A stretch of DNA of 9,947 nucleotides from Candidatus Helarchaeota ASGARD archaeon Hel_GB_B (lineage in GTDB: Archaea; Asgardarchaeota; Lokiarchaeia; Helarchaeales; HEL-GB-B), in contig SUPR01000109.1 of NCBI GenBank assembly GCA_005191425.1, positions 1-9,947 of the forward strand, in the 5' to 3' direction. Below, in pieces: positions 1 through 9,947 of this stretch. The notes beneath the pieces were generated by a model. That model worked only from the letters and a program-made list of their open reading frames with translations, ran no database searches and was not told where the DNA came from. Each line of letters starts with the position of its first letter. Within the stretch, counting starts at the first letter, position 1. Both the position numbers and the translations under genes were made by a program.

Positions 1-120
1 TAAACTTTTTTGCGTAAAACAAATCTATTATACATATAATACCTATCATACGTATAACCTATTAAAAGGTGATATAATCTATGTTTTTAAGAATATATAT
101 AACTTCTGGTCAAAAATAGG

Positions 121-138
121 TGGCTTTTATGGCTTTTA
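121..138 (+). repeat. 9-bp perfect tandem duplication (TGGCTTTTA x2)
   Basis: tggctttta at 121-129 and 130-138. Confidence 0.8.
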
Positions 139-419
139 GACTATAATAGCTGATTAACTTTTTAGATGTTTTCTATTATTTTTTTTATTAATAATGCTAT
201 CATATAAAGCTGTTTAGAATATTCAAGTCCTTATTTTTTATTTTATGTGAGACCAGTCAATTTCAATAAAATTATATAAATAAATGTATAGTAGCGAAAA
301 CATTTTTAAAGGTAAAAAAAAGCGGGTCCTGCCCAAAGATCTTTAATTTAAAGCCACTTTTATCATTATGAATTTTCGCACTCATTGCATTTTATAGACC
401 TTTTTACCTTTTTACATAA

Positions 420-1000
420 ATGAGATATAAGATGAGTATAGACCAAGATGAGCTGTTTAATAAATATTTATAGGTATATAAATTTTAAATTTATATAAGG
501 CAGAGTTATAAAATTTTTAGATAAATATGATAATAAAAAATGATTAAAGAGTAAAAATAATAATATTGTTAAAAATGAGGGGTTAAATAAAAATAGGGGC
601 GGTCAAATTAATCATATTGAAAGGGGAAGTCTAAATGTTGTCTAAATGTTTATTATTATCACAAAAACCTGGACTTGATAATACCGATTAATAGCGCATT
701 AAAAGAGGTTATAGAGGCGCTAAAAATTGTTGCAATAAAATTTAAAGGAAAAAATATAACAACAAAAATAGTAGAACAGGAGTTTAGTAGAGTAAAAAAG
801 CAGATAAATTTTAAAGTGAAAAAGAGGGAGGAGATGTGGAAAAAGGTCTTGAATTTTATTATACGATGAGGGAATTTCTTGATTTGGTGAAAGGAGTAAT
901 AAAAGAAATAGAAATAGGGAAAAAAAATGTTAAGAAGGTCGATGGGACTTGTATTAAAAGTAATAGAGAACTGCGGTGGAAAAATAACAGAAAAAAATAA
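420..1000 (+). pseudogene. Probable decayed coding relic, possibly the C-terminal part of a DDE transposase (includes ORF 675..869 and a 44-aa ORF 866..1000)
   Basis: The + strand is purine-rich and coding-like, with protein-like segments broken by stops and frameshifts (MRYKMSIDQDELFNKYL*; GRVIKFLDKYDNKK*LKS; ...TTKIVEQEFSRVKKQINFK). Removing one copy of the 11-bp tandem duplication at 629-650 gives one open frame from 544 to 869. TTKIVEQEFSRVKK loosely resembles the TTNxxExxFxxxK catalytic-Glu helix of DDE transposases. The identity is speculative. Confidence 0.3.
629..650 (+). repeat. 11-bp perfect tandem duplication (GTCTAAATGTT x2)
   Basis: gtctaaatgtt at 629-639 and 640-650. Confidence 0.9.
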
Positions 1001-1087
1001 AAATGAAAAATGTTTAATTTTTAAAGAATAGGATTTTATGAAAAGTTAATACAGATATATTTTTATATATATTAACTAATGATTTAA

Positions 1088-1456
1088 GTGAAATTTATAA
1101 TGCCAGAAAATAATGAAAAAGATGAAAAAAAACTAGGGATAGTGGAAATTGAAAGTTTAAAAGATTTGGTACATTTAATAGTAAGACTACCATTCCAAAT
1201 TGTTAACCATATGGAATTATCTGGAAAACACTTATATTTCATTTTATTAGGAAGTGGCGTTCCTGGAGTTTCAACTACTTTGTATTATATTCTTTTGGAT
1301 GAGAAAATTAAAGAAACATATATCGTGTTTAATAGCATTAAAGATACAATAACATACTCAAGTTCTTTTGAGGATAGGCGAGGTGGTACGGTATACATCC
1401 CAATTATTAACATAAAGAAACAGAACTTAGTTAAGGAAGATCTACTTAACTTTTAA
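1088..1456 (+). CDS. Hypothetical protein of ~120 aa (start GTG 1088 or ATG 1100); resembles small conserved archaeal hypotheticals
   Basis: Intact ORF with globular alpha/beta composition, a TATA-like TTTATATA at ~1062-1069 upstream and a T-tract right after the stop. No motif recognised. Confidence 0.75.
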   Translation: MKFIMPENNEKDEKKLGIVEIESLKDLVHLIVRLPFQIVNHMELSGKHLYFILLGSGVPGVSTTLYYILLDEKIKETYIVFNSIKDTITYSSSFEDRRGGTVYIPIINIKKQNLVKEDLLNF

Positions 1457-1471
1457 TTTTTAAATTTTTTT
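1457..1471 (+). terminator. Putative archaeal oligo-T terminator of the 1088..1456 gene
   Basis: TTTTTAAATTTTTTT immediately after the TAA stop. Confidence 0.4.
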
Positions 1472-1610
1472 GTAATATGCTTTTATTATTTTTAATAAGT
1501 AGGTATTCAATTTAATAAATAAAATATAGAAAATGAGATAATCCAGATATAAGGCTACTAAATTAAAAATTTTAATTATTTATTTAGAATTATATAAATT
1601 AAATAAACTG

Positions 1611-1627
1611 AAAAAATTAAAAAAAAA
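1611..1627 (-). terminator. Putative oligo-T terminator of the acyl-CoA dehydrogenase gene
   Basis: An A-tract on + (T-tract on -) about 17-33 nt past the stop at 1644; the two genes are convergent. Confidence 0.35.
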
Positions 1628-1643
1628 TAAATATATTGGTTTT

Positions 1644-3215
1644 TTATTTTGTCATTTCCATTAATCGTTCATCTGCTTTTACCCAATCAGGGTACCATTG
1701 ATAATATTCTTGTGGATTAGCTTTTCTAAGTCCAGCATAATTTGCTTTGACTAAGATTATTTTGTCCTTATGTTTAAAAGTTACTACAAGGCCTTGTTTT
1801 TCTAATTTTTCAATGAGTTCATTAATTACGCTGCGTTTCCATTTCGTTAGTTTGCGAATGTCATCAATTTTCATATGTAGTCCAGGATTTAATCTATAAT
1901 CTTCTGCCAGTATTTTTAATAAGTTTTCCTCTGTTGGTTCTGTTTTTAGCCAATGAGATGGTTTATTTGTAATTATAGGAACGCCCAATTCTTCATGTAA
2001 AACAAAATGATGGTCTAATTCCAAAAATCCTTTTTCTAAAAGAGACCCTCTATAAATAATTACTTTTTGAATTTCTGTAGTCCCTGCTACGATTTCACCT
2101 ATTTTTGCTTCTCGAACCATTCGTTCTATTGGATAAAATCGAGTCAATCCATCACCACCGCTTATTTGGACTGCTACTGATCCAATTTCACGTGCTGAAA
2201 TTGTGCTATATAATTTTGCAATACTTGACCATACGCCCAATGCCATTTCCCTCATTTTTAGTTCTTTTCCGTGGTCTAACAAATATGCAGTGTGATAATT
2301 CACTAATCTTGCGATTTTAAATTTGGTTATAATATCAGCAAGGTCGAATTGTAAGTTGGTCAATCGATTTACTTGAATACCGAATTGAACTCTTCTTTCC
2401 ATATAATTGCCTAATAATTTAATTATGTCACCAAATCCACCGCCAACTACAGCAGCGCCGATCAAACGTTCAAAGTTTAAGCCAGCCATCATAACTTGCC
2501 AACCTTGGCCAATATCACCGCATCTTTGTGAATCAGGTATTCGTACATCCTCGAAGTTCAAATATCCGTTAGGTACATTATCGAAGCCTATCAATGTATT
2601 AATTTTTTCAAGTGTAAATCCTTTAGTCCCGCGATCTATTACAAATGCAGTTAAATGTTTATATTGGCGTCGGTCAGTTGGGTCATCGCTTGTTTTACAA
2701 TAGACTAAATATCTACCTGCAGCTCCTGCACCAGTAGCAAATCTTTTTTTACCATTAATAACCCATTCATCGCCTTCTTTTACTGCGGTTGTATAAGCGT
2801 TTGCTGCATCAGAGCCAGCAAAAACTTCAGTGATCCCTACAGCACCTAAAACTTTACCTTCAGCAATCTGAGTAAGGTATTTTTGTTTTAGTTCTTCAGT
2901 TCCGAATTTAATTAATTGGTGTAGTCCACCTAACATAGAGACAACGAATAGATGTCCAACAGCATAAAGACGACCTAAAGCTTCAGCAACAATACAGCAT
3001 CCAGTTGCTCCCAAGTCAAGTCCGCCGTATTCTTTGGGTACACCTGCACCCATATATCCTTTTTTAGCAACTAGATCCATAACTTCCCATGGAAATCGGT
3101 GCTCCCAATATGCTCTTTCAGCTTTTTCAATATGATCATCACAAAATTGACCGACATCTTTAGCAAGAGCTTTTTGCTCGTCGGTCCACCACCAAAACGG
3201 TTCTAAACCAGCCAT
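1644..3215 (-). CDS. Acyl-CoA dehydrogenase (IVD/LCAD-type catalytic Glu) with a ~130-aa C-terminal extension resembling a winged helix-turn-helix
   Basis: ACAD motifs: GITEVFAGSD (signature 1), WVINGKKRF, GQGWQVMMAGLNFERL, R.QFG, QISGGDG and R.VREAKIGEIVAGTTEIQK (signature 2). The chain continues ~134 aa beyond the usual ACAD end. Confidence 0.95.
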   Translation of the reverse strand: MAGLEPFWWWTDEQKALAKDVGQFCDDHIEKAERAYWEHRFPWEVMDLVAKKGYMGAGVPKEYGGLDLGATGCCIVAEALGRLYAVGHLFVVSMLGGLHQLIKFGTEELKQKYLTQIAEGKVLGAVGITEVFAGSDAANAYTTAVKEGDEWVINGKKRFATGAGAAGRYLVYCKTSDDPTDRRQYKHLTAFVIDRGTKGFTLEKINTLIGFDNVPNGYLNFEDVRIPDSQRCGDIGQGWQVMMAGLNFERLIGAAVVGGGFGDIIKLLGNYMERRVQFGIQVNRLTNLQFDLADIITKFKIARLVNYHTAYLLDHGKELKMREMALGVWSSIAKLYSTISAREIGSVAVQISGGDGLTRFYPIERMVREAKIGEIVAGTTEIQKVIIYRGSLLEKGFLELDHHFVLHEELGVPIITNKPSHWLKTEPTEENLLKILAEDYRLNPGLHMKIDDIRKLTKWKRSVINELIEKLEKQGLVVTFKHKDKIILVKANYAGLRKANPQEYYQWYPDWVKADERLMEMTK

Positions 3216-3527
3216 TTTTCATTCAGACCCTTTAAATTTAAATTTTTAATTAAAAAGTTGGTTATAATAAAAAAGATCATACAGTTTAAGAAATTTTTTA
3301 CAAATGAAAATTAATTAAATTAAAGTAAAAGATTTAACTAAAAAGTGGAACTTAAGAATAAAATATAGAGAATATTAAGGTAATCATAGGAAATAATAAT
3401 GAGAATAATTATGTAATTAAATATTAAGGTAAAAATAATCATATAATTGAATTATAAGTTAAAATATATAATATTATTCATAAAATATTAAAAAAAGTAT
3501 CATGTAAATTGTTGTAGGATGCAATAA

Positions 3528-4688
3528 TTATTTAATGAATTTAGTTGATCTTCCAATTCCAAGAGATAGGATATCATCTTTAGTAATTTTGTAATCTGGG
3601 GGAGTATCTTTGTTGATATCCAAATATACGCCATGTAATACTTCGTCAGTACTCATACCAAGAGATTGAGAGAAGATACGTTCGCCTTCAGGGTATGATG
3701 GTTCAAATTTACTAGTTTTCCATATTTCTTTTGAATTTAAATCAGCAATTTGACAATTAAGTGTTTGGTAAGGTGTAACAAGTCCATTTTTTTCGAGTTT
3801 ATTAATTAATGCACTTTCATAAATTTCTGGAAGGTCACTTTTTAGCCAGTTTATCCAGAAATCACCCAGCCCTTGAATATACAGGTTATGGCCAGCTGAA
3901 AGGCCAGCAAGAATTACTGTAAAATTAAATCGAGGAGAAATTAATAAAGTTTGAATAAAAGGTGGATAAGGTACATATTCAAAATATGCATCAGGAAGTC
4001 CCCATATACGAGGTGCGGTTATCCCATCATAGATATTGGCAATGGATTCATAATTGGAAATTTCAATACCTAAATTACATGCAGCACTCATCCAAACAAG
4101 GACAACATGATAAGTAGAATTAGCCCATTGAGGAGTACGTTCATTTCGGATATCTTTTAATACATCAATAATTTTTTGACCACTTTTACGTAAAGTTTTA
4201 TATTTATTTGGGATATCCTTTAGTTTATAGCCAAATTTTATATGTCTACGGTTGAGAATTTCATCGTCCTTTTGAATCATGAACCAATCAACAGGAATAC
4301 CGCTCTCCATATGACAGTTAAAAAAAGTACCAATTTCACCTGTGAAATCATTAATTAGAATAAAAGTAGAATCAGTGGAATCACCATATAATAATTTAGT
4401 AGTACCAATTTGAAGATCAGAACGTATTCCAAAAACAACTGGGAAAAAGAAGAAGGTAAAAACTTTTTCTGGGTCATTTATTTTTCCATTAATAATCTCT
4501 TTAGCAGTATAAATTGCTTCATCAAGTCGTTCACGAGCAAGATAATAATATTTATCAAATACTAATTCCATAGCATTTTTAGAATAATTCCAGCCAAAAT
4601 CTCGGATAATAGGCCACATATTAAAGCTTAAAGGAAGAAATCTTTTTGTTCTAAGACTATCAGGGATATCACCATAATAAGTAGGCAT
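3528..4688 (-). CDS. Hypothetical protein of 386 aa, function unknown
   Basis: Long intact ORF with an ATG start, 22 nt downstream of the hydrolase stop on the same strand. No family recognised. Confidence 0.88.
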   Translation of the reverse strand: MPTYYGDIPDSLRTKRFLPLSFNMWPIIRDFGWNYSKNAMELVFDKYYYLARERLDEAIYTAKEIINGKINDPEKVFTFFFFPVVFGIRSDLQIGTTKLLYGDSTDSTFILINDFTGEIGTFFNCHMESGIPVDWFMIQKDDEILNRRHIKFGYKLKDIPNKYKTLRKSGQKIIDVLKDIRNERTPQWANSTYHVVLVWMSAACNLGIEISNYESIANIYDGITAPRIWGLPDAYFEYVPYPPFIQTLLISPRFNFTVILAGLSAGHNLYIQGLGDFWINWLKSDLPEIYESALINKLEKNGLVTPYQTLNCQIADLNSKEIWKTSKFEPSYPEGERIFSQSLGMSTDEVLHGVYLDINKDTPPDYKITKDDILSLGIGRSTKFIK

Positions 4689-4710
4689 TTTAGTTCACAG
4701 CAATCGTATT

Positions 4711-5475
4711 TTAAATTGATTCAACAAAATTTTTAATGATTTGATTTATAACACTTGATTTTTCAATATGGACATCATGACCAGCATTTGGGATAATTTG
4801 TAAAATACTTTTTTTAATTTTTTCGTTTAAGTAAATTGAATATTTTTGAGGAGTTAATAAATCTTTTTCCCCACAAATAATCAAAGTTGGAACGGTAATT
4901 TTTTTCACTTGATCCATTATATCAAATTTGTTGCAAATATTAAAATCGGCAATGTAAGTTTTTGATGTTGTTCGTAAAGATTCTGCTTTAACAAATTCAA
5001 TTAACGGTTTTGATTTAGAATACATTGCTATAGAACTAATTTGGTTTATTGCGCTATTAAAATCACTTTGTAAAGATTCAAAAATAAGTGAACTAACTTT
5101 TAATTTAGCCCCAGTTCCAATTAGGATCAAACTATCTACATTATCATACTTTAAGAAATAAGACATACAGATAGCACCACCCATTGAATGGCCCGCCAAT
5201 GTAATTTTATTTCTGTCAAGATGGAGGATTAATTTGTCAATACATTTAAGATATAAATCCATAGAAAGTTCTAGTTCAGCAGAGGAATTAGCATGACCTG
5301 GTAAATCAATAGATATAATTCTAAAATATTTACTTAATTCTGAAAACTGAAACTTCCATAAATTAGAATTTTCACCAGCTCCATGGATAAAAATTATGGT
5401 TTTTTGATCTGAAGTAGAATTTGGGTCAGAATCTTGATAGAAAATATTAACTCCATTGATTTCTAAATATGGCAG
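4711..5475 (-). CDS. Alpha/beta-hydrolase (serine hydrolase; enol-lactonase/esterase-like), 254 aa with a predicted CTG start
   Basis: The frame is open upstream of the track's Met (5262) and encodes IIFIHGAGEN and IDLPGH, with GHSMGG, GEKD and GHDV downstream. There is no in-frame ATG/GTG/TTG upstream. CTG-CCA-TAT (5475) has GGAGG 9 nt upstream. Confidence 0.9.
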   Translation of the reverse strand: MPYLEINGVNIFYQDSDPNSTSDQKTIIFIHGAGENSNLWKFQFSELSKYFRIISIDLPGHANSSAELELSMDLYLKCIDKLILHLDRNKITLAGHSMGGAICMSYFLKYDNVDSLILIGTGAKLKVSSLIFESLQSDFNSAINQISSIAMYSKSKPLIEFVKAESLRTTSKTYIADFNICNKFDIMDQVKKITVPTLIICGEKDLLTPQKYSIYLNEKIKKSILQIIPNAGHDVHIEKSSVINQIIKNFVESI

Positions 5476-5484
5476 ATTAATTCG

Positions 5485-5489
5485 CCTCC
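5485..5489 (-). promoter_or_regulatory. Shine-Dalgarno GGAGG for the hydrolase starting at 5475
   Basis: cctcc on + at 5485-5489; 9-nt spacer to CTG. Confidence 0.65.
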
Positions 5490-5522
5490 ATAAATATTTT
5501 AGGTGAGAATGAATAGAGTAAA

Positions 5523-6290
5523 TTAAAGATTTTGAATAAAATTTCTAATAATTTTGTTTATTAAAATATATTTTTCAATATATACAAGATGACCAGAATT
5601 TGGGATAACATAAAATTTACTATTTTTAATATGTTTATGTAAATATTTTGAATTTTCAATCGGAGTAAGGATGTCATCTTTACCACAAATGATTAAAGTA
5701 GGAATAACTATTTTATCAAGTTTATTTCTTACATCAAATTGATTTATCAATAGAAAATCTTTTAGAGTAACATCGATAGGAGTTTTTATAATTTCTGTTA
5801 AAGCCAATTCACTCAGTTCTTCAAGATTTATCACTATTTTATCAGTTGTTTTGAAAAATTTTAAAGCTTTTAAGAAATTATGGTTAATATCCTCAATTCG
5901 TAATATTATATGTTTAAATGTAGGGGCAGTACTTATTAAAATTAGACCTTTTAGACACTTATATGTAATTGCATATAATTGGGCTATTGCGCCACCCATA
6001 GAATGTCCAACTAATACCGTCCAATTAAGATTTAAGTGAATAATTAATTTATTAACAATTTCAAGGTAAAGACTAAGTGAAAGTTTTTCAATAACTTGGG
6101 ATCTTCCGTGTCCTGGCAAATCTATCGCAATTATTCTATATTCTTTAAAAAAACATTGTATTTGATATCGCCATAGATTCAAATTTTCTCCTGCTCCATG
6201 AATAAATAACAATGTTTTATCGGGATTTTTGGAATGTTTCCCATAATCTATATAAAATATTTTTCTATTTTTAAAAATAAAATAAGGAAT
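5523..6290 (-). CDS. Alpha/beta-hydrolase, paralog of the downstream gene, 255 aa with a predicted ATT start
   Basis: Motifs LFIHGAGEN, IDLPGHG, GHSMGG, GKDD and GHLV. The frame extends 26 codons upstream of TTG 6212 to ATT-CCT-TAT, matching the paralog's start. GAGGT lies 6 nt upstream and an in-frame stop closes the frame 4 codons above the ATT. Confidence 0.9.
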   Translation of the reverse strand: MPYFIFKNRKIFYIDYGKHSKNPDKTLLFIHGAGENLNLWRYQIQCFFKEYRIIAIDLPGHGRSQVIEKLSLSLYLEIVNKLIIHLNLNWTVLVGHSMGGAIAQLYAITYKCLKGLILISTAPTFKHIILRIEDINHNFLKALKFFKTTDKIVINLEELSELALTEIIKTPIDVTLKDFLLINQFDVRNKLDKIVIPTLIICGKDDILTPIENSKYLHKHIKNSKFYVIPNSGHLVYIEKYILINKIIRNFIQNL

Positions 6291-6296
6291 TTTTAG

Positions 6297-6301
6297 ACCT
6301 C
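6297..6301 (-). promoter_or_regulatory. Shine-Dalgarno GAGGT directly after the ard1 stop codon
   Basis: The minus strand reads TAA-GAGGT-CTAAAA-ATT-CCT-TAT. Confidence 0.6.
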
Positions 6302-6796
6302 TTAATTAGTTAATTTATAAGCCATTAAATATGCGTCCTCTCCATCTTTATAATAACCTTTTAATATCTTAATTTTTTTAAAATTATATTTCTCATATAA
6401 TTTTATGGCGCTGGTATTAGAAATTCGTACTTCAAGATAATATTCTTGCACTTGATAGAAACGAGCCATTGAGTCCATTCCAAATTTTAGTAGGCGTTCA
6501 CCGATTTTTTGTCTTCTAAAGTCTTCAAGGACTGCAATAGAAATTAAATGAGCAATTTTGATTCTTCTTAGTGAAATAGCAAAGTTAGAAAATGTTTTTT
6601 CGACTCTCCACATGCAATAGCCAATAATTGAACCATTTCTAGTATTTTCAGCCACCCAGAAACCTTGTGGAAATTTATAATAAACTTCTAAGAAAAAATA
6701 TGACGCATAGTTCTCGGGGAGTGCTGCTCTATTGACTTTTACTACTCCATTAAGGTCATTATCATTAAATAACCGTAATCTAATATTTTCACTCAT
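6302..6796 (-). CDS. rimI: GNAT N-terminal acetyltransferase, archaeal Ard1/RimI type
   Basis: LPENY, HLISIAV, the acetyl-CoA motif RRQKIG, LEVRISN and YYKDGEDAYLM are characteristic of Ard1/Naa10/RimI. Confidence 0.92.
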   Translation of the reverse strand: MSENIRLRLFNDNDLNGVVKVNRAALPENYASYFFLEVYYKFPQGFWVAENTRNGSIIGYCMWRVEKTFSNFAISLRRIKIAHLISIAVLEDFRRQKIGERLLKFGMDSMARFYQVQEYYLEVRISNTSAIKLYEKYNFKKIKILKGYYKDGEDAYLMAYKLTN

Positions 6797-6819
6797 TAAA
6801 AAATCAGTATCAAACTATC

Positions 6820-6827
6820 TTTATAAA
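6820..6827 (-). promoter_or_regulatory. TATA box (TTTATAAA) at -31..-24 from the ard1 ATG; likely leaderless transcript
   Basis: Palindromic TTTATAAA at canonical archaeal spacing if transcription starts at or near the ATG; no SD upstream of this ATG. Confidence 0.5.
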
Positions 6828-6949
6828 AGTTATTTATAGTTAAGAGTTGGGAAGATTGAAGATTTTAAGAATATATAATTTAATTCAGAAGAAAATGAAA
6901 AATTGAAGGTTTTTTAAAAAAATATTTTCATTTAAATTTCAAAATTAAC

Positions 6950-7762
6950 TCAAATATCAATATATAAAAGTTTTTTATTTTCAAATTTCACAATTTGAGT
7001 GTATCCAATATTTCGGAGTAATTTTAATGCGTCTTCAAATTTCCAAGCTATTTCATCAGGTTTATGGGCATCTGAACCTAAAGTTATTTGAATATCATTT
7101 TCATAACATTTTTCAAGAATATTTTGGGATGGATAAAATTCATTCACCGGTTTACGATCACCGGCAGTATTTAATTCAATACAAACATGATTTTTTTTCA
7201 ATAATTCAATAACTGGATCGATTAAAAATGAAATATCATCTTTCGGACGAAACCCAAACTTTTTAACTAAATCAAAATGACCAATTATATTAAAAATATG
7301 AGATTCGACCGCTTTTTTTAAAGCGAAATAATAATCTTTATTAATATCTAAAATGTCAATTTTATCAAATTTCGGAAGATTTTTAGGGTCATCAATACAC
7401 CAATCATTAATAACATGGACAGACCCGATTATATAATCAAATTTAAATTTATCTAAAGCCTTTTTTATAATTTGGTCTTTATTTATAATATAATCAGCTT
7501 CGGTGGCAATTTTAATCTTAATATCAGTGTATTTCTCTTGTAATTCTTTTAAATTATCAAGATATTTTGATACTTCATCCATTGACATACAATAACTTGA
7601 GGTGTCAATATTTTTAGGTATATAGAACATAGGAAAATGGTCACTAAAACCAATTTCGTCCAAATTTTTTGAAATAGCTGATTCAACATATTCGTAAGTT
7701 TCTCCAATGGCATGGTGACACATTTTTGTGTGTACATGAGCATCAATTAATCCTTTTATCAT
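6950..7762 (-). CDS. hisK: PHP-family histidinol-phosphatase (HisJ/HisK type)
   Basis: PHP motifs DAHVHT, GFSDH, EADY, IIGSVH, IGHFDLVKKF, ELNTAG.RKP, E.YPS and ITLGSDAH. Confidence 0.88.
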   Translation of the reverse strand: MIKGLIDAHVHTKMCHHAIGETYEYVESAISKNLDEIGFSDHFPMFYIPKNIDTSSYCMSMDEVSKYLDNLKELQEKYTDIKIKIATEADYIINKDQIIKKALDKFKFDYIIGSVHVINDWCIDDPKNLPKFDKIDILDINKDYYFALKKAVESHIFNIIGHFDLVKKFGFRPKDDISFLIDPVIELLKKNHVCIELNTAGDRKPVNEFYPSQNILEKCYENDIQITLGSDAHKPDEIAWKFEDALKLLRNIGYTQIVKFENKKLLYIDI

Positions 7763-7823
7763 TTTATTTCACATTAAATAAATTTATTTATAATTGAGAA
7801 ATTATTTTTATTAAATTTTTCAG

Positions 7824-7855
7824 AGATTAAGCTGATTATTTTTTGTTGAATATAT
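7824..7855 (+). repeat. Left terminal inverted repeat (AGATTAAGCTGATTATTTTTTGTTGAATATAT)
   Basis: 22 of the first 24 nt match the reverse complement of 9695-9718 (first 13 nt perfect); a further 7 nt match after a 1-nt indel. Confidence 0.85.
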
Positions 7856-8041
7856 AATTTTCACTATTTCAATGTTTCTAAATCTTTTTCAAATTTTTTA
7901 CTATTCTAACTTTATTTTTTTATTATATTTTTAATTTAGTCGGATTCTTACATTAGATTTTGCTTTTTTTTCTTCTGTCTTTGTAGTGTATTACGGAGAG
8001 AATACTCACTTTTATATTAATTATTTAACACCCAAATTCTT

Positions 8042-9668
8042 ATGGACCCTATTGACGATAAACCCTATATTATTGCCAGGCTACCAGCCCCAGACCTAAC
8101 TAATATTTCGTGTCCGAAGTGTAACTCCACCAATATTATTCGAGTTAACTCATATCCCAGAATTATTAAAGACCTGGGCACCAAAACTCGTAGAAAATTC
8201 GTGGAATTCGAAAGTATTCACCTCAAGTGCAAGTCCTGTCTTTCAATTTTTCCCGTAGAAAGAGACGAGATTATCAATGGACTATCGATTACCAGAGATG
8301 TACTTGAAACAATACTGCTATTATACTATAATTTTGAAAATTCCGCTGAAAAAATAGTACGACTAATGGAGTCATTATATTCAGTCAAACTAAAAAGGAG
8401 CTCGGTCTTAAAGTGGGTAAATATCTATGGCATTGATTATTGTCAGAAGAATAATATGGAGTTTCATAAAAATTCTGAGGTTTCAAGTGGCTATTTCGGA
8501 GCTGATGGGACATTTCCGAAATTAAAATTTCTTTCAGATACCGATTTAAATGATAAATATAGAGAAAAAAAAATGGATGTGCCCTGGTTATATCTGACAG
8601 AATTACGGGACGGGAGCTTATGTGCTATTTGGGAAGAGGTGAAGACCAACAAGAAATAGAAAAGTTCCTTACCCTTTTTAAAGAAAAGTTGAGTAAACCA
8701 CCAAAATCCATTGTTGTAGATTATAAGCCAGCCTGGGATATTGCTATTAAGCGCGTCTTTCCGGATACTATGATAATTAAAGATGGGTTTCACACGGTAC
8801 AGCTGGTAAACCGAGCAATACTAAAATGCCTACAAAAATTAACCAATAAAATATATTCAACACCAATTCGAGATACTATTAAATTATATCAACTCATTAA
8901 AAAAGATAACTGGGCAGGTAATATTAATAATTTTAATTCTACAAATAAATTTATTAAGGAATTTAAATATTATTATCAAATACTTGTTAAATTATATAAA
9001 AAAGAAGAGTTAATTGAATTTAAACCCAGACTTAATAATATATTGAATAAATTATCAGATTTAAATACTGAATATTCTATTTTATTATATCACGAATTGA
9101 TAAACAGACTTCCCCCTAATGGCCTAACTGAAAAAAATTTAAAATATTATAAAATTAAGCTCAGGGCGTCTCTATCAAAAGTGATGAGGATATTTAGACG
9201 CCAATTAGAGGTCGAAAAAAAGAACTTAAAAATGCGAGATTTCTAGTTTTAAAGAGAGCAGAGAACTTGTCTAAACAGGAAAAAGAGTGTTTAGAGAAAC
9301 TATTAAGCCAATTTAGTATCTTAAAAAAGTATAGAGCTCTATCACTGAGAATCTCAGATATATATCACAGACCGGCGGAAAAATTAAAGGAAGATATAAT
9401 ATTAGGAATTAAGTTATGGGCTGACGCTGAAGAGGAATTGAAGGCAGCAGTTAAGACATTGAAAAAAAATGTAAAAGAAATACTCAATTTCAGACACATA
9501 ATTCCGGAAAAAAATAAAGAAATAATGTATAGAAAAATCAGGTCAAGTCCGGAATATTCGATGAGAAAAATAAAAAAGGTGATGAGGAATAGATATGGGC
9601 TTAAGACAAAAAATGCAACACAATTATATCTTGAAAATCAATTAAAATGCCCGGTAATTATAGCATAG
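8042..9668 (+). CDS. ISL3-family-like DDE transposase split over three frames (8042..8572, 8572..9222, 9222..9668); 542 aa if both -1 shifts occur
   Basis: Frame A: CPKC...R.IKD...CKSC zinc finger, HTH-like segment and GADGTF (D at 8504). Frame B: IVVDY (D at 8719) and FP...KDGFH. Frame C: KNARFLVLKRAENL and SSPEYSMRKIKKVMRNRYGLK (E at 9552). The junctions coincide with A9 (8565-8573) and A_AAA_AAG (9216-9222). Confidence 0.85.
8565..8573 (+). other. Putative -1 frameshift/slippage site 1 (A9; A_AAA_AAA in phase)
   Basis: The -1 frame opens only at 8563 (TAG at 8560-8562), and its translation KKNGCALVISDRITGRELM follows immediately. Confidence 0.65.
9216..9222 (+). other. Putative -1 frameshift site 2 (A_AAA_AAG in phase)
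   Basis: The two frames overlap only over 9198-9246. The heptamer is in the correct phase and the conserved KNARFLVLK follows in the -1 frame. Confidence 0.7.
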
Positions 9669-9687
9669 ACCCGGAAAAATTTAAATA

Positions 9688-9718
9688 ATATATTAACAAA
9701 AATTTATCAGCTTAATCT
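9688..9718 (-). repeat. Right terminal inverted repeat (reverse complement AGATTAAGCTGATAAATTTTTGTTAATATAT)
   Basis: Inverted copy of 7824-7855, starting 20 nt after the transposase stop. Confidence 0.85.
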
Positions 9719-9806
9719 AAAATACACATTTAATAAAAAATAAGAAGATTATTATAGTTTAAAAAATAATTAAGAATTTGAATTTTTAATTATAGAATTT
9801 TCCGAA

Positions 9807-9947
9807 TTATTTTATAGAATAACGTTTTCTGTCTCTCCATTCCTGGATTTTTCCATTGTTAAACCTTTTTACGCGGGAATAATAACCGGTCACTCTGCTC
9901 CACCATTCTATATATTCGTCTCCAGCACCACATTTTGGGCATGTATT
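9807..9947 (-). CDS. nrdD: 3' end (46 aa) of anaerobic class III ribonucleoside-triphosphate reductase; 5'-truncated by the window edge
   Basis: The minus strand reads NTCPKCGAGDEYIEWWSRVTGYYSRVKRFNNGKIQEWRDRKRYSIK*. It has the CxxC Zn ligands, the glycyl-radical loop SRVTGY (Gly at 9885-9887) and the FN.GK.QE...R tail. Absent from the ORF track. Confidence 0.93.
   Translation of the reverse strand, partial: NTCPKCGAGDEYIEWWSRVTGYYSRVKRFNNGKIQEWRDRKRYSIK

Follow-up and report, generated by a model that had tools for sequence, protein, structure and literature searches.

A winged-helix C-terminal module in a distinct acyl-CoA dehydrogenase subfamily of Helarchaeota and other Asgard archaea

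A stretch of 9,947 nucleotides from Candidatus Helarchaeota archaeon Hel_GB_B (GenBank assembly GCA_005191425.1, contig SUPR01000109.1, positions 1 to 9,947) was analysed, and this whole stretch is called the window below. The open reading frame (ORF) at 1644-3215 on the minus strand was translated to a 523-aa acyl-CoA dehydrogenase (ACAD), which carried a C-terminal tail with a predicted winged-helix fold. We identified the protein as a member of a distinct ACAD subfamily, for which no curated family model, solved structure or published description was found. Proteins of this subfamily had about 506-525 aa and were spread over Asgard archaea and over many contigs of sediment and anaerobe metagenomes in which the gene clusters were of the bacterial type. 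The tail was probably a docked accessory module of the enzyme's architecture or partner surface, either fused or provided as a separate subunit, and not a regulator.

Results

The region 1644-2048 corresponded to residues 390-523 and the stop codon. The initial annotation had counted about 134 extra residues past the end of the ACAD part. This agreed with the Pfam ACAD match, which ended at residue 391 and left about 132 residues beyond the ACAD fold. The alignment used for modelling combined the tail, its Asgard orthologues and short fragments of the representative library that consisted of the tail only. The AlphaFold2 model of the tail alone had a mean pLDDT of 85.2 and a pTM of 0.78. The full-length model had a pLDDT of 85.5 and a pTM of 0.81, with 91-97 pLDDT in 10-residue blocks of the winged-helix core and less than 50 for residues 519-523. 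Three helices were predicted at 429-442 (H1), 450-457 (H2) and 461-473 (H3), and another helix followed the wing at 493-499. The strands were a short one at about 447-449 and the wing pair at 477-482 and 485-491. This was almost residue for residue the secondary structure that had been read by eye in the initial annotation.

Structural searches were performed with the tail model. The top Foldseek matches in the PDB were of the MarR family, namely PefR (E 8e-4), ZitR and MepR, and the small winged helix 2obp was matched with a TMt of 0.80. The exhaustive VIA-align search gave 2obp with Z 10.2 over 81 residues, followed by AF1382 (8.8), IdeR (8.6) and MarR (8.6). It also returned winged helices that bind proteins, such as Scc1-C/ScpA, Rio2 and the N-domains of O-methyltransferases. 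The feature matches in the ESM Atlas (0.90-0.93) were assorted small winged-helix clusters, and these bear on the fold only. The model and both structural searches agreed with the earlier proposal of an ACAD with a winged-helix C-terminal domain. Sequence profiles gave matches below threshold on H2-H3, to MarR_2, TrmB, HTH_27, Csa3 HTH and Lrs14 in Pfam and NCBIfam. No Pfam helix-turn-helix (HTH) cut-off was reached by the tail, with 15.6-17.8 against 27 bits for MarR_2, 13-16 against 25.6 for TrmB and 13.7 against 22.2 for HTH_27. All its matches to NCBIfam models were far under the cut-offs. The tail sequence gave nothing significant among PDB chains, where the best match (E 0.011) was an unrelated NPC1-related protein. 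No solved ACAD spanned the tail, and the best PDB matches of the full-length model had at most 411 aligned columns and a TMq of at most 0.68. As judged from the models, the tail has a winged-helix fold, yet it is a member of no curated HTH family.

A search of the 90% collection with the tail region retrieved 65 proteins of about 480-525 aa, and all of them were ACADs. The carriers were Helarchaeota, with tails 53-71% identical, many metagenomes and a few metagenome-assembled genomes of Bacillota and Pseudomonadota. The metagenome scan found 370 stretches encoding tail-bearing ACADs, and the tail was present in 61 of 301 sampled Asgard genomes. One Asgard genus (g37) showed an expansion of paralogues, with 6-9 tail-bearing ACAD matches per genome (G047, G064, G070, G088) compared to one in the source genome. 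When the tail alone was searched against 1.84 billion representative proteins, 62 clusters were obtained and 10 were inspected. Nine were C-termini or fragments of ACADs. The tenth (P0119, E about 1e-4) was a surface protein with aRib repeats, which was not an ACAD and looked like a chance match. Since the inspected clusters were ACAD C-termini in nine of ten cases, the tail appeared to occur on no other protein and to form no free regulator family. A full-text literature search found no publication on an ACAD-winged-helix fusion.

The subfamily had a three-part signature, consisting of an N-terminal WW motif ([FPS]-W-W), a catalytic Glu of the IVD/LCAD type and the winged-helix tail. Both the fused ACADs and the ACADs of a split form described below had the WW motif. 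It was absent from canonical ACADs of 373-411 aa on the same contigs. The 523-aa ACAD had all the subfamily motifs, which were WW, the IVD-type Glu, the linker, the winged helix, KAxYxGL and EYYxWxPxW. A tree of the ACAD body was calculated with FastTree (LG+gamma) from 132 sequences and 377 columns, and was rooted on nine canonical ACADs from the same contigs. The tail-bearing family formed one clade. The Asgard fused proteins were grouped with a support of 1.0, and the Helarchaeota clade with the 523-aa ACAD was inside this group.

The body of the protein was a regular ACAD. The three Pfam ACAD domains all exceeded their cut-offs, and the full-length model matched many solved ACADs with TMt values of 0.87-0.92 in Foldseek. 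The closest proteins carried the annotation Candidatus Helarchaeota, and the Helarchaeota orthologues had 522-525 aa and 67-81% identity. The likely catalytic base was Glu249 in the N-F-E-R motif. This residue would match the position of IVD Glu254 and MCAD Thr255, as estimated from the motif and from alignment offsets rather than from a direct IVD alignment. The alignment placed Ala377 (V-A-G-T) opposite the Glu of YEGT in Bcd (5ol2_C), which is the MCAD-type position. The 523-aa ACAD is probably active as a dehydrogenase, and its substrate would be an acyl-CoA that is short, branched or unusual in some other way. The NCBIfam equivalog cut-offs were far from reached, and the best match was AcrC with 258 against 640 bits. 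The source genome encoded 10 ACADs, and the tail was present on the 523-aa ACAD only.

The survey of Asgard genomes also yielded short open frames of about 100 aa (90-124 aa), which were stand-alone homologues of the winged-helix core. The relation to the fused tail was detected with BLASTP (E 4e-8) and with hhalign (probability 98.6%, E 5e-16, 71 columns). The stand-alone profile gave only spurious DARPin matches in the PDB. We evaluated the 27 split loci that were not cut by a contig end. In all 27, from several Asgard families, the stand-alone gene was directly upstream of a WW-type ACAD of 410-449 aa on the same strand. The two genes mostly abutted or overlapped by a few bases. Four called pairs overlapped by 17-110 nt, probably because of the start choice of the longest ORF. 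The split-form ACAD was about 35% identical to the 523-aa ACAD and had the WW motif and the IVD-type Glu. In addition, it retained an extension of 25-30 aa at the position where the fused proteins have the linker. Because the module was C-terminal when fused and upstream when separate, the two forms were not linked by a simple loss of a stop codon. The feature that is kept is the association of the module with the ACAD itself. Examples of the split pair were L018 2049-4571 (-), L019 2131-4498 (-), L020 4454-6821 (+) and L103-L132. The split pair also occurred in families in which no fused tail was seen among the genomes searched, for example f9 (14 of 76 genomes). In three loci with longer flanks, the split-form ACAD was followed by a gene that we take from its sequence to be enoyl-CoA hydratase-like.

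Conservation of the tail was calculated over 97 tail-bearing sequences. Near-invariant positions were concentrated at the end of H1, the following loop, strand 1 (S1) and the start of H2 (L433, A437, D439, Y440, N443, P444, G445, L446, M448, D452). The others were P413, L471 and E472 at the buried end of H3, and K490, A491, Y493, G495 and L496 in strand 3 (S3) and the next helix. The aromatic tail was also near-invariant at P501, Y505, W507, P509 and W511. Conservation was at least 96% for Y493, G495, L496, P501, Y505 and P509, and about 90% for W507 and W511. The highest entropy in the domain, 2.2-3.1 bits, was found at the solvent-facing positions of H3 (461-463, 465, 466, 469, 470, 473). 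The winged-helix fold puts H1 and S3 at the back of the domain, opposite to the face formed by H3 and the wing. The same back face was conserved in the fused and split forms, comprising the end of H1, the NPGL loop, strand 3 and KAxYxGL, and H3 was variable in both. The stand-alone proteins conserved LLAKxFEYxQaLH and KIKLAKITWxGLN. Their H3 was variable and neutral or acidic, with isoelectric points (pI) of 5.0-9.3 that were mostly neutral to acidic. They had no Trp-rich tail, and the wing was not basic.

The charge of H3 differed between the two groups of fused proteins. In the bacterial-type members, the exposed face of H3 was acidic in 60-66 of 76 sequences, with Asp461 in 54 and Asp465 in 57 of the 76. 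Their H3 net charge was -1 to -4 and the pI of the winged helix was about 5. The Asgard members were basic on this face, with K or R at position 461 in 20 of 21. A mirror of this charge was observed at body position 291, where 71 of 76 bacterial-type members had Lys and 14 of 21 Asgard members had Asp or Glu. From the sequences, this charge swap may be a candidate lead towards docking of the module on the ACAD body.

The gene neighbourhoods were also compared. No common neighbours were found at the Asgard fused loci examined (L001, L021, L022). The bacterial-type neighbourhoods were counted from 80 metagenome loci, and these were organic-acid catabolic clusters. One or more AMP-forming CoA ligases were encoded in 27 of the 80. 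TRAP or ABC transporters were common, and a trio of the xanthine-dehydrogenase family was present at about 11 loci. Thiolase, short-chain dehydrogenase/reductase, hydratase and 3-hydroxyacyl-CoA dehydrogenase genes were further neighbours. Because of these varied neighbourhoods, the module appeared not to be tied to one pathway and to be a general trait of a diversified enzyme family. A separate TetR regulator gene was present in 13 bacterial-type loci. This meant that where a regulator is evident at the locus, it is a different protein from the tailed ACAD. No genes for electron-transfer flavoprotein (ETF) were adjacent to the tailed ACAD in the 80 metagenome loci. The source genome had two EtfAB pairs, and these were beside canonical ACADs on other contigs.

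Two arrangements recurred in the metagenome loci. One cluster (L031, L041, L063, L075, L080) contained TetR, the xanthine-dehydrogenase-family trio (FAD_binding_5, Fer2_2, MoCoBD), the tailed ACAD, a TRAP transporter and two AMP-ligases. Such a cluster points to a pathway in which some organic acid is processed by a Mo-hydroxylase together with the tailed ACAD. The other (L049, L052, L066, L097, L102) had the order tailed ACAD, carboxyltransferase (PF01039) and a canonical ACAD of 383 aa. This order presumably recalls the isovaleryl-CoA/methylcrotonyl-CoA or glutaryl-CoA/glutaconyl-CoA modules.

Table 1. Coordinates in the window of the 523-aa ACAD gene and of its parts.
Feature	Coordinates	Strand	Evidence
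Whole gene of the 523-aa ACAD, winged-helix tail included	1644..3215	(-)	ORF list and translation
N-terminal FWWW motif, residues 7-10; subfamily signature	3186..3197	(-)	W9 and W10 almost invariant across the family
ACAD N-terminal alpha domain, residues 11-121	2853..3185	(-)	PF02771, E 1.1e-25
ACAD middle beta domain, residues 125-224	2544..2843	(-)	PF02770, E 1.8e-20
Glu249 of the N-F-E-R motif, likely catalytic base, IVD/LCAD position	2469..2471	(-)	N247, E249 and R250 invariant
ACAD C-terminal alpha domain, residues 236-391	2043..2510	(-)	PF00441, E 1.9e-29
Linker with predicted beta-hairpin (strands 403-406 and 413-416), residues 392-428; Pro413 of LGVPI invariant	1932..2042	(-)	AlphaFold2, conservation
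Predicted winged-helix core, residues 429-492: H1, NPGL loop, S1, H2, H3, S2, wing, S3	1740..1931	(-)	AlphaFold2, Foldseek, VIA-align
Helix 3, residues 461-473, RSVINELIEKLEK; recognition-helix position; preceded by basic K458-W-K-R461	1797..1835	(-)	Entropy, charge
Beta-wing, residues 477-491; conserved basic	1743..1787	(-)	Conservation, charge
Post-wing helix and aromatic motif, residues 493-511, YAGLRKANPQEYYQWYPDW	1683..1739	(-)	Conservation
Helarchaeota-specific C-terminal end, residues 512-523, and stop; low model confidence	1644..1682	(-)	Helarchaeota clade only

Discussion

Based on the above results, we favour a reading in which the module would dock back on the flavoenzyme through its conserved face. 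This face would be made of the end of H1 and the NPGL loop, of strands 1 and 3, the latter together with the KAxYxGL helix, and of the aromatic tail. Once docked, the module would be a structural or partner-interface element, for example one that shapes the oligomer or the surface for the electron acceptor or the CoA substrate, and not a sequence-specific transcription factor. Since the back face was conserved in the fused and split forms and H3 was variable, contact through the back face is most simply the function common to all forms. The ACAD was the only partner that was always present with the module. The full-length pTM of 0.81 was higher than 0.75, the ceiling (391/523) for a confidently placed ACAD body alone, and this would agree with docking in the predicted structure. 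The WW motif, just before helix A, co-occurred with the module, which may likewise point to docking. Contact with the body would then involve the WW motif or helix A and could affect catalysis or electron transfer. The initial annotation had left a choice between an enzyme-regulator fusion and a winged helix reused for binding to a partner or membrane. The partner-contact part was supported by the conserved back face and by the coupling to the ACAD. The regulator part lost ground with the variable or acidic H3, the separate TetR genes and the lack of a free regulator form.

Several observations weigh against a docked module without a regulatory role. The H3 and wing face of the Helarchaeota proteins was clearly basic (K458, K460, R461, K481, K483, K485, K490), and the pI of the winged helix was 8.2-9.5, as in winged helices that bind DNA. 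Other Asgard members had an H3 of the S-R-S-x-I-R-K type, like true recognition helices. Basic residues of the wing were conserved over the whole family, with about 90% K/R at 481 and 482 and an invariant K/R at 490. The charge swap between 461 and 291 was a single phylogenetic event. In addition, operons under a small winged-helix repressor often begin with the gene of that repressor, so that the split arrangement alone is compatible with a regulator. In a rival explanation, the docked winged helix in the Asgard and Helarchaeota clade would expose a basic H3 and wing and bind DNA or RNA. This would give the ACAD a second role as a transcriptional regulator or a nucleoid-associated protein, with its binding modulated by acyl-CoA or by the redox state of the flavin. 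The tail has the fold of MarR-type DNA binders, and docking by the back face would keep H3 and the wing free, the way they are in real regulators. The dimeric arrangement required by winged helices would come from the ACAD oligomer. The K/R at position 461 of the Asgard proteins and their basic wing fit this explanation. AidB and PutA are precedents, and imperfect repeats and palindromes were present in the AT-rich upstream region of 312 nt (3216-3527). However, most of the family had a conserved acidic H3, and H3 and the wing were neutral or acidic in the stand-alone homologues. The exposed positions of H3 were the least conserved, even inside clades, and the tail stayed below the cut-off of every Pfam HTH model (15.6-17.8 against 27 bits). 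The repeats lie in DNA of about 20% G+C, where an excess over chance was not established, and the Asgard loci examined had no common neighbours that hinted at a regulon. Overall, we consider a nucleic acid-binding role of this kind unlikely. Slightly less likely still is the strict version, in which the Asgard ACAD is a true trigger enzyme whose DNA binding is switched by substrate or by the redox state of the flavin, and the module is merely structural in the bacterial-type and split forms.

The conserved wing could also be explained by an adaptor function. The basic wing (R/K481, R/K482, K490) and the aromatic tail (EYYxW[FY]PxW) would bind the 3'-phospho-ADP of CoA, an electron acceptor other than ETF, or the membrane. 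Both features were conserved in bacterial-type and Asgard members irrespective of the charge of H3. The lack of adjacent ETF genes at the 80 metagenome loci, and the position of the two EtfAB pairs of the source genome next to canonical ACADs instead of the tailed one, would fit such a function. However, a missing neighbouring ETF gene is weak evidence. No transmembrane or amphipathic segment was found, though no search was aimed at one. The stand-alone homologues had neither the Trp-rich tail nor a basic wing, which meant that these features were not universal. We regard the adaptor function as improbable. A fusion of an ACAD with a neighbouring small regulator gene could also be produced by misassembly or read-through, and the existence of split forms elsewhere was the sole point in favour. 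In contrast, the same stop-free architecture was found across hundreds of independent contigs and genomes. The small gene was upstream of the split-form ACAD and not downstream, so that read-through cannot yield the fusion. An artefact was rejected as having next to no chance, because the 65 proteins, the 370 metagenome stretches and the 61 of 301 Asgard genomes shared the architecture.

The protein was compared with known systems. The best match in sequence and fold was Bcd of the Clostridium difficile Bcd-EtfAB complex (5ol2_C), with E 3e-64 over query residues 34-393, 36% identity and a TMt of 0.91. A likeness to ACADs of the IVD/LCAD type (1ivh, 9jq4) was suggested by the three ACAD domains, the Glu of N-F-E-R in putative helix G and an Ala/Gly at the position of MCAD Glu376. 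Compared to these enzymes and Bcd, the 523-aa ACAD had in addition the C-terminal module of 132 residues and the N-terminal WW motif. None of the solved ACADs could be aligned past about residue 404.

The MarR-type and small winged helices (PefR 7dvu, ZitR 5yi1, MarR 5h3r, IdeR 2isy, 2obp, AF1382 2qvo) had the same H1-S1-H2-H3-S2-wing-S3 topology as the tail, with Z values of 8-10 over 65-81 residues. The LExxGL motif at the end of H3 was common to the tail and the MarR-type proteins. However, the identity was 11-26%, the tail is located on the C-terminus of an enzyme, H3 was mostly variable or acidic, and the conservation was on the side opposite to H3. The concept of a metabolic enzyme with a DNA-binding fold is shared with BirA and PutA, and the N-terminal winged helix of BirA (6ndl) matched the tail with Z 7.2. 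The DNA-binding domain of BirA and PutA is N-terminal, its binding to DNA is established, and that of PutA is a ribbon-helix-helix. Unlike in these two proteins, DNA binding is disfavoured for most of the winged-helix ACAD family, given its H3 sequences.

Two other groups of ACADs with additional C-terminal domains were considered for the tail. AidB is a flavoprotein of the ACAD fold that binds DNA. AidB, ACDH-11 and Bd2924 are likewise flavoproteins of the ACAD fold with an additional C-terminal domain. In this group, a short all-alpha C-terminal extension is carried on a divergent ACAD core, the additions at the C-terminus change the oligomer and the access of ETF, and the docking site of ETF is blocked by the tetramer (PMC6851490). 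In contrast, the core of the 523-aa ACAD was of the conventional short/branched-chain type and the predicted extension was an alpha/beta winged helix. An AidB-type tail was rejected on the predicted beta-hairpin and beta-wing and the winged-helix matches. VLCAD and ACAD9 (3b96, 8phe) and the bacterial FadE-type enzymes are also longer than 500 aa and have a C-terminal addition that alters quaternary structure or partner binding. Their helical domain of about 180 aa was rejected as well; the matches ended at query residues 393-396 and the tail has 132 aa. The alternative fold raised with the initial annotation, a helical domain of the VLCAD or AidB type, was therefore not what we found, and no solved ACAD covered the tail. 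The 523-aa protein is a member of the ACAD superfamily and is neither of the AidB type nor of the VLCAD type.

ACADs are among the best-studied flavoenzymes, yet a whole winged-helix subfamily has remained uncurated. A module that reshapes the oligomer or the face of electron exit would be relevant to how strict anaerobes get rid of the high-potential electrons released when acyl-CoA is oxidised. Should it instead bind DNA in Asgard archaea, the protein would represent a new kind of enzyme-regulator. If the ACAD were a trigger enzyme, there would be a direct link from the catabolism of fatty acids or amino acids to transcription in the archaeal lineage nearest to eukaryotes. For annotation, the combination of WW, the IVD-type Glu and KAxYxGL/EYYxWxPxW would separate the subfamily from generic entries named "acyl-CoA dehydrogenase family protein". 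For the genes of about 100 aa upstream of WW-type ACADs, the fold alone is no ground for annotation as a transcription factor.

Other features of the window

The window was AT-rich, with 25-37% G+C. The intergenic region of 312 nt at 3216-3527 contained imperfect tandem repeats of about 30 nt at 3355-3463, with copies 73-80% identical. A search for operators in this region gave many short AT-only palindromes and the imperfect 30-nt repeat, which were not taken as evidence in DNA so AT-rich. The ORF directly upstream of the ACAD, at 3528-4688 (-), encoded 386 aa and had no Pfam or NCBIfam match. It belonged to a large multi-copy family of hypothetical proteins of about 385 aa, with 190 members at E<=1e-5, several per genome and almost all in Helarchaeota or Lokiarchaeota. 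One relative was 84% identical. The ORF was rejected as a conserved partner of the ACAD, as it had no similarity to the 397-aa ORF near the fused ACAD in another genome (G038). Two paralogous genes for alpha/beta-hydrolases (Abhydrolase_1 / Hydrolase_4) were located at 4711-5262 (-) and 5523-6212 (-), and the ORFs defined by ATG or TTG looked short at the N-terminus. An ISL3-type transposase, with matches to Zn_ribbon_ISL3 and DDE_Tnp_ISL3, was split over three frames at 8042-9668 (+).

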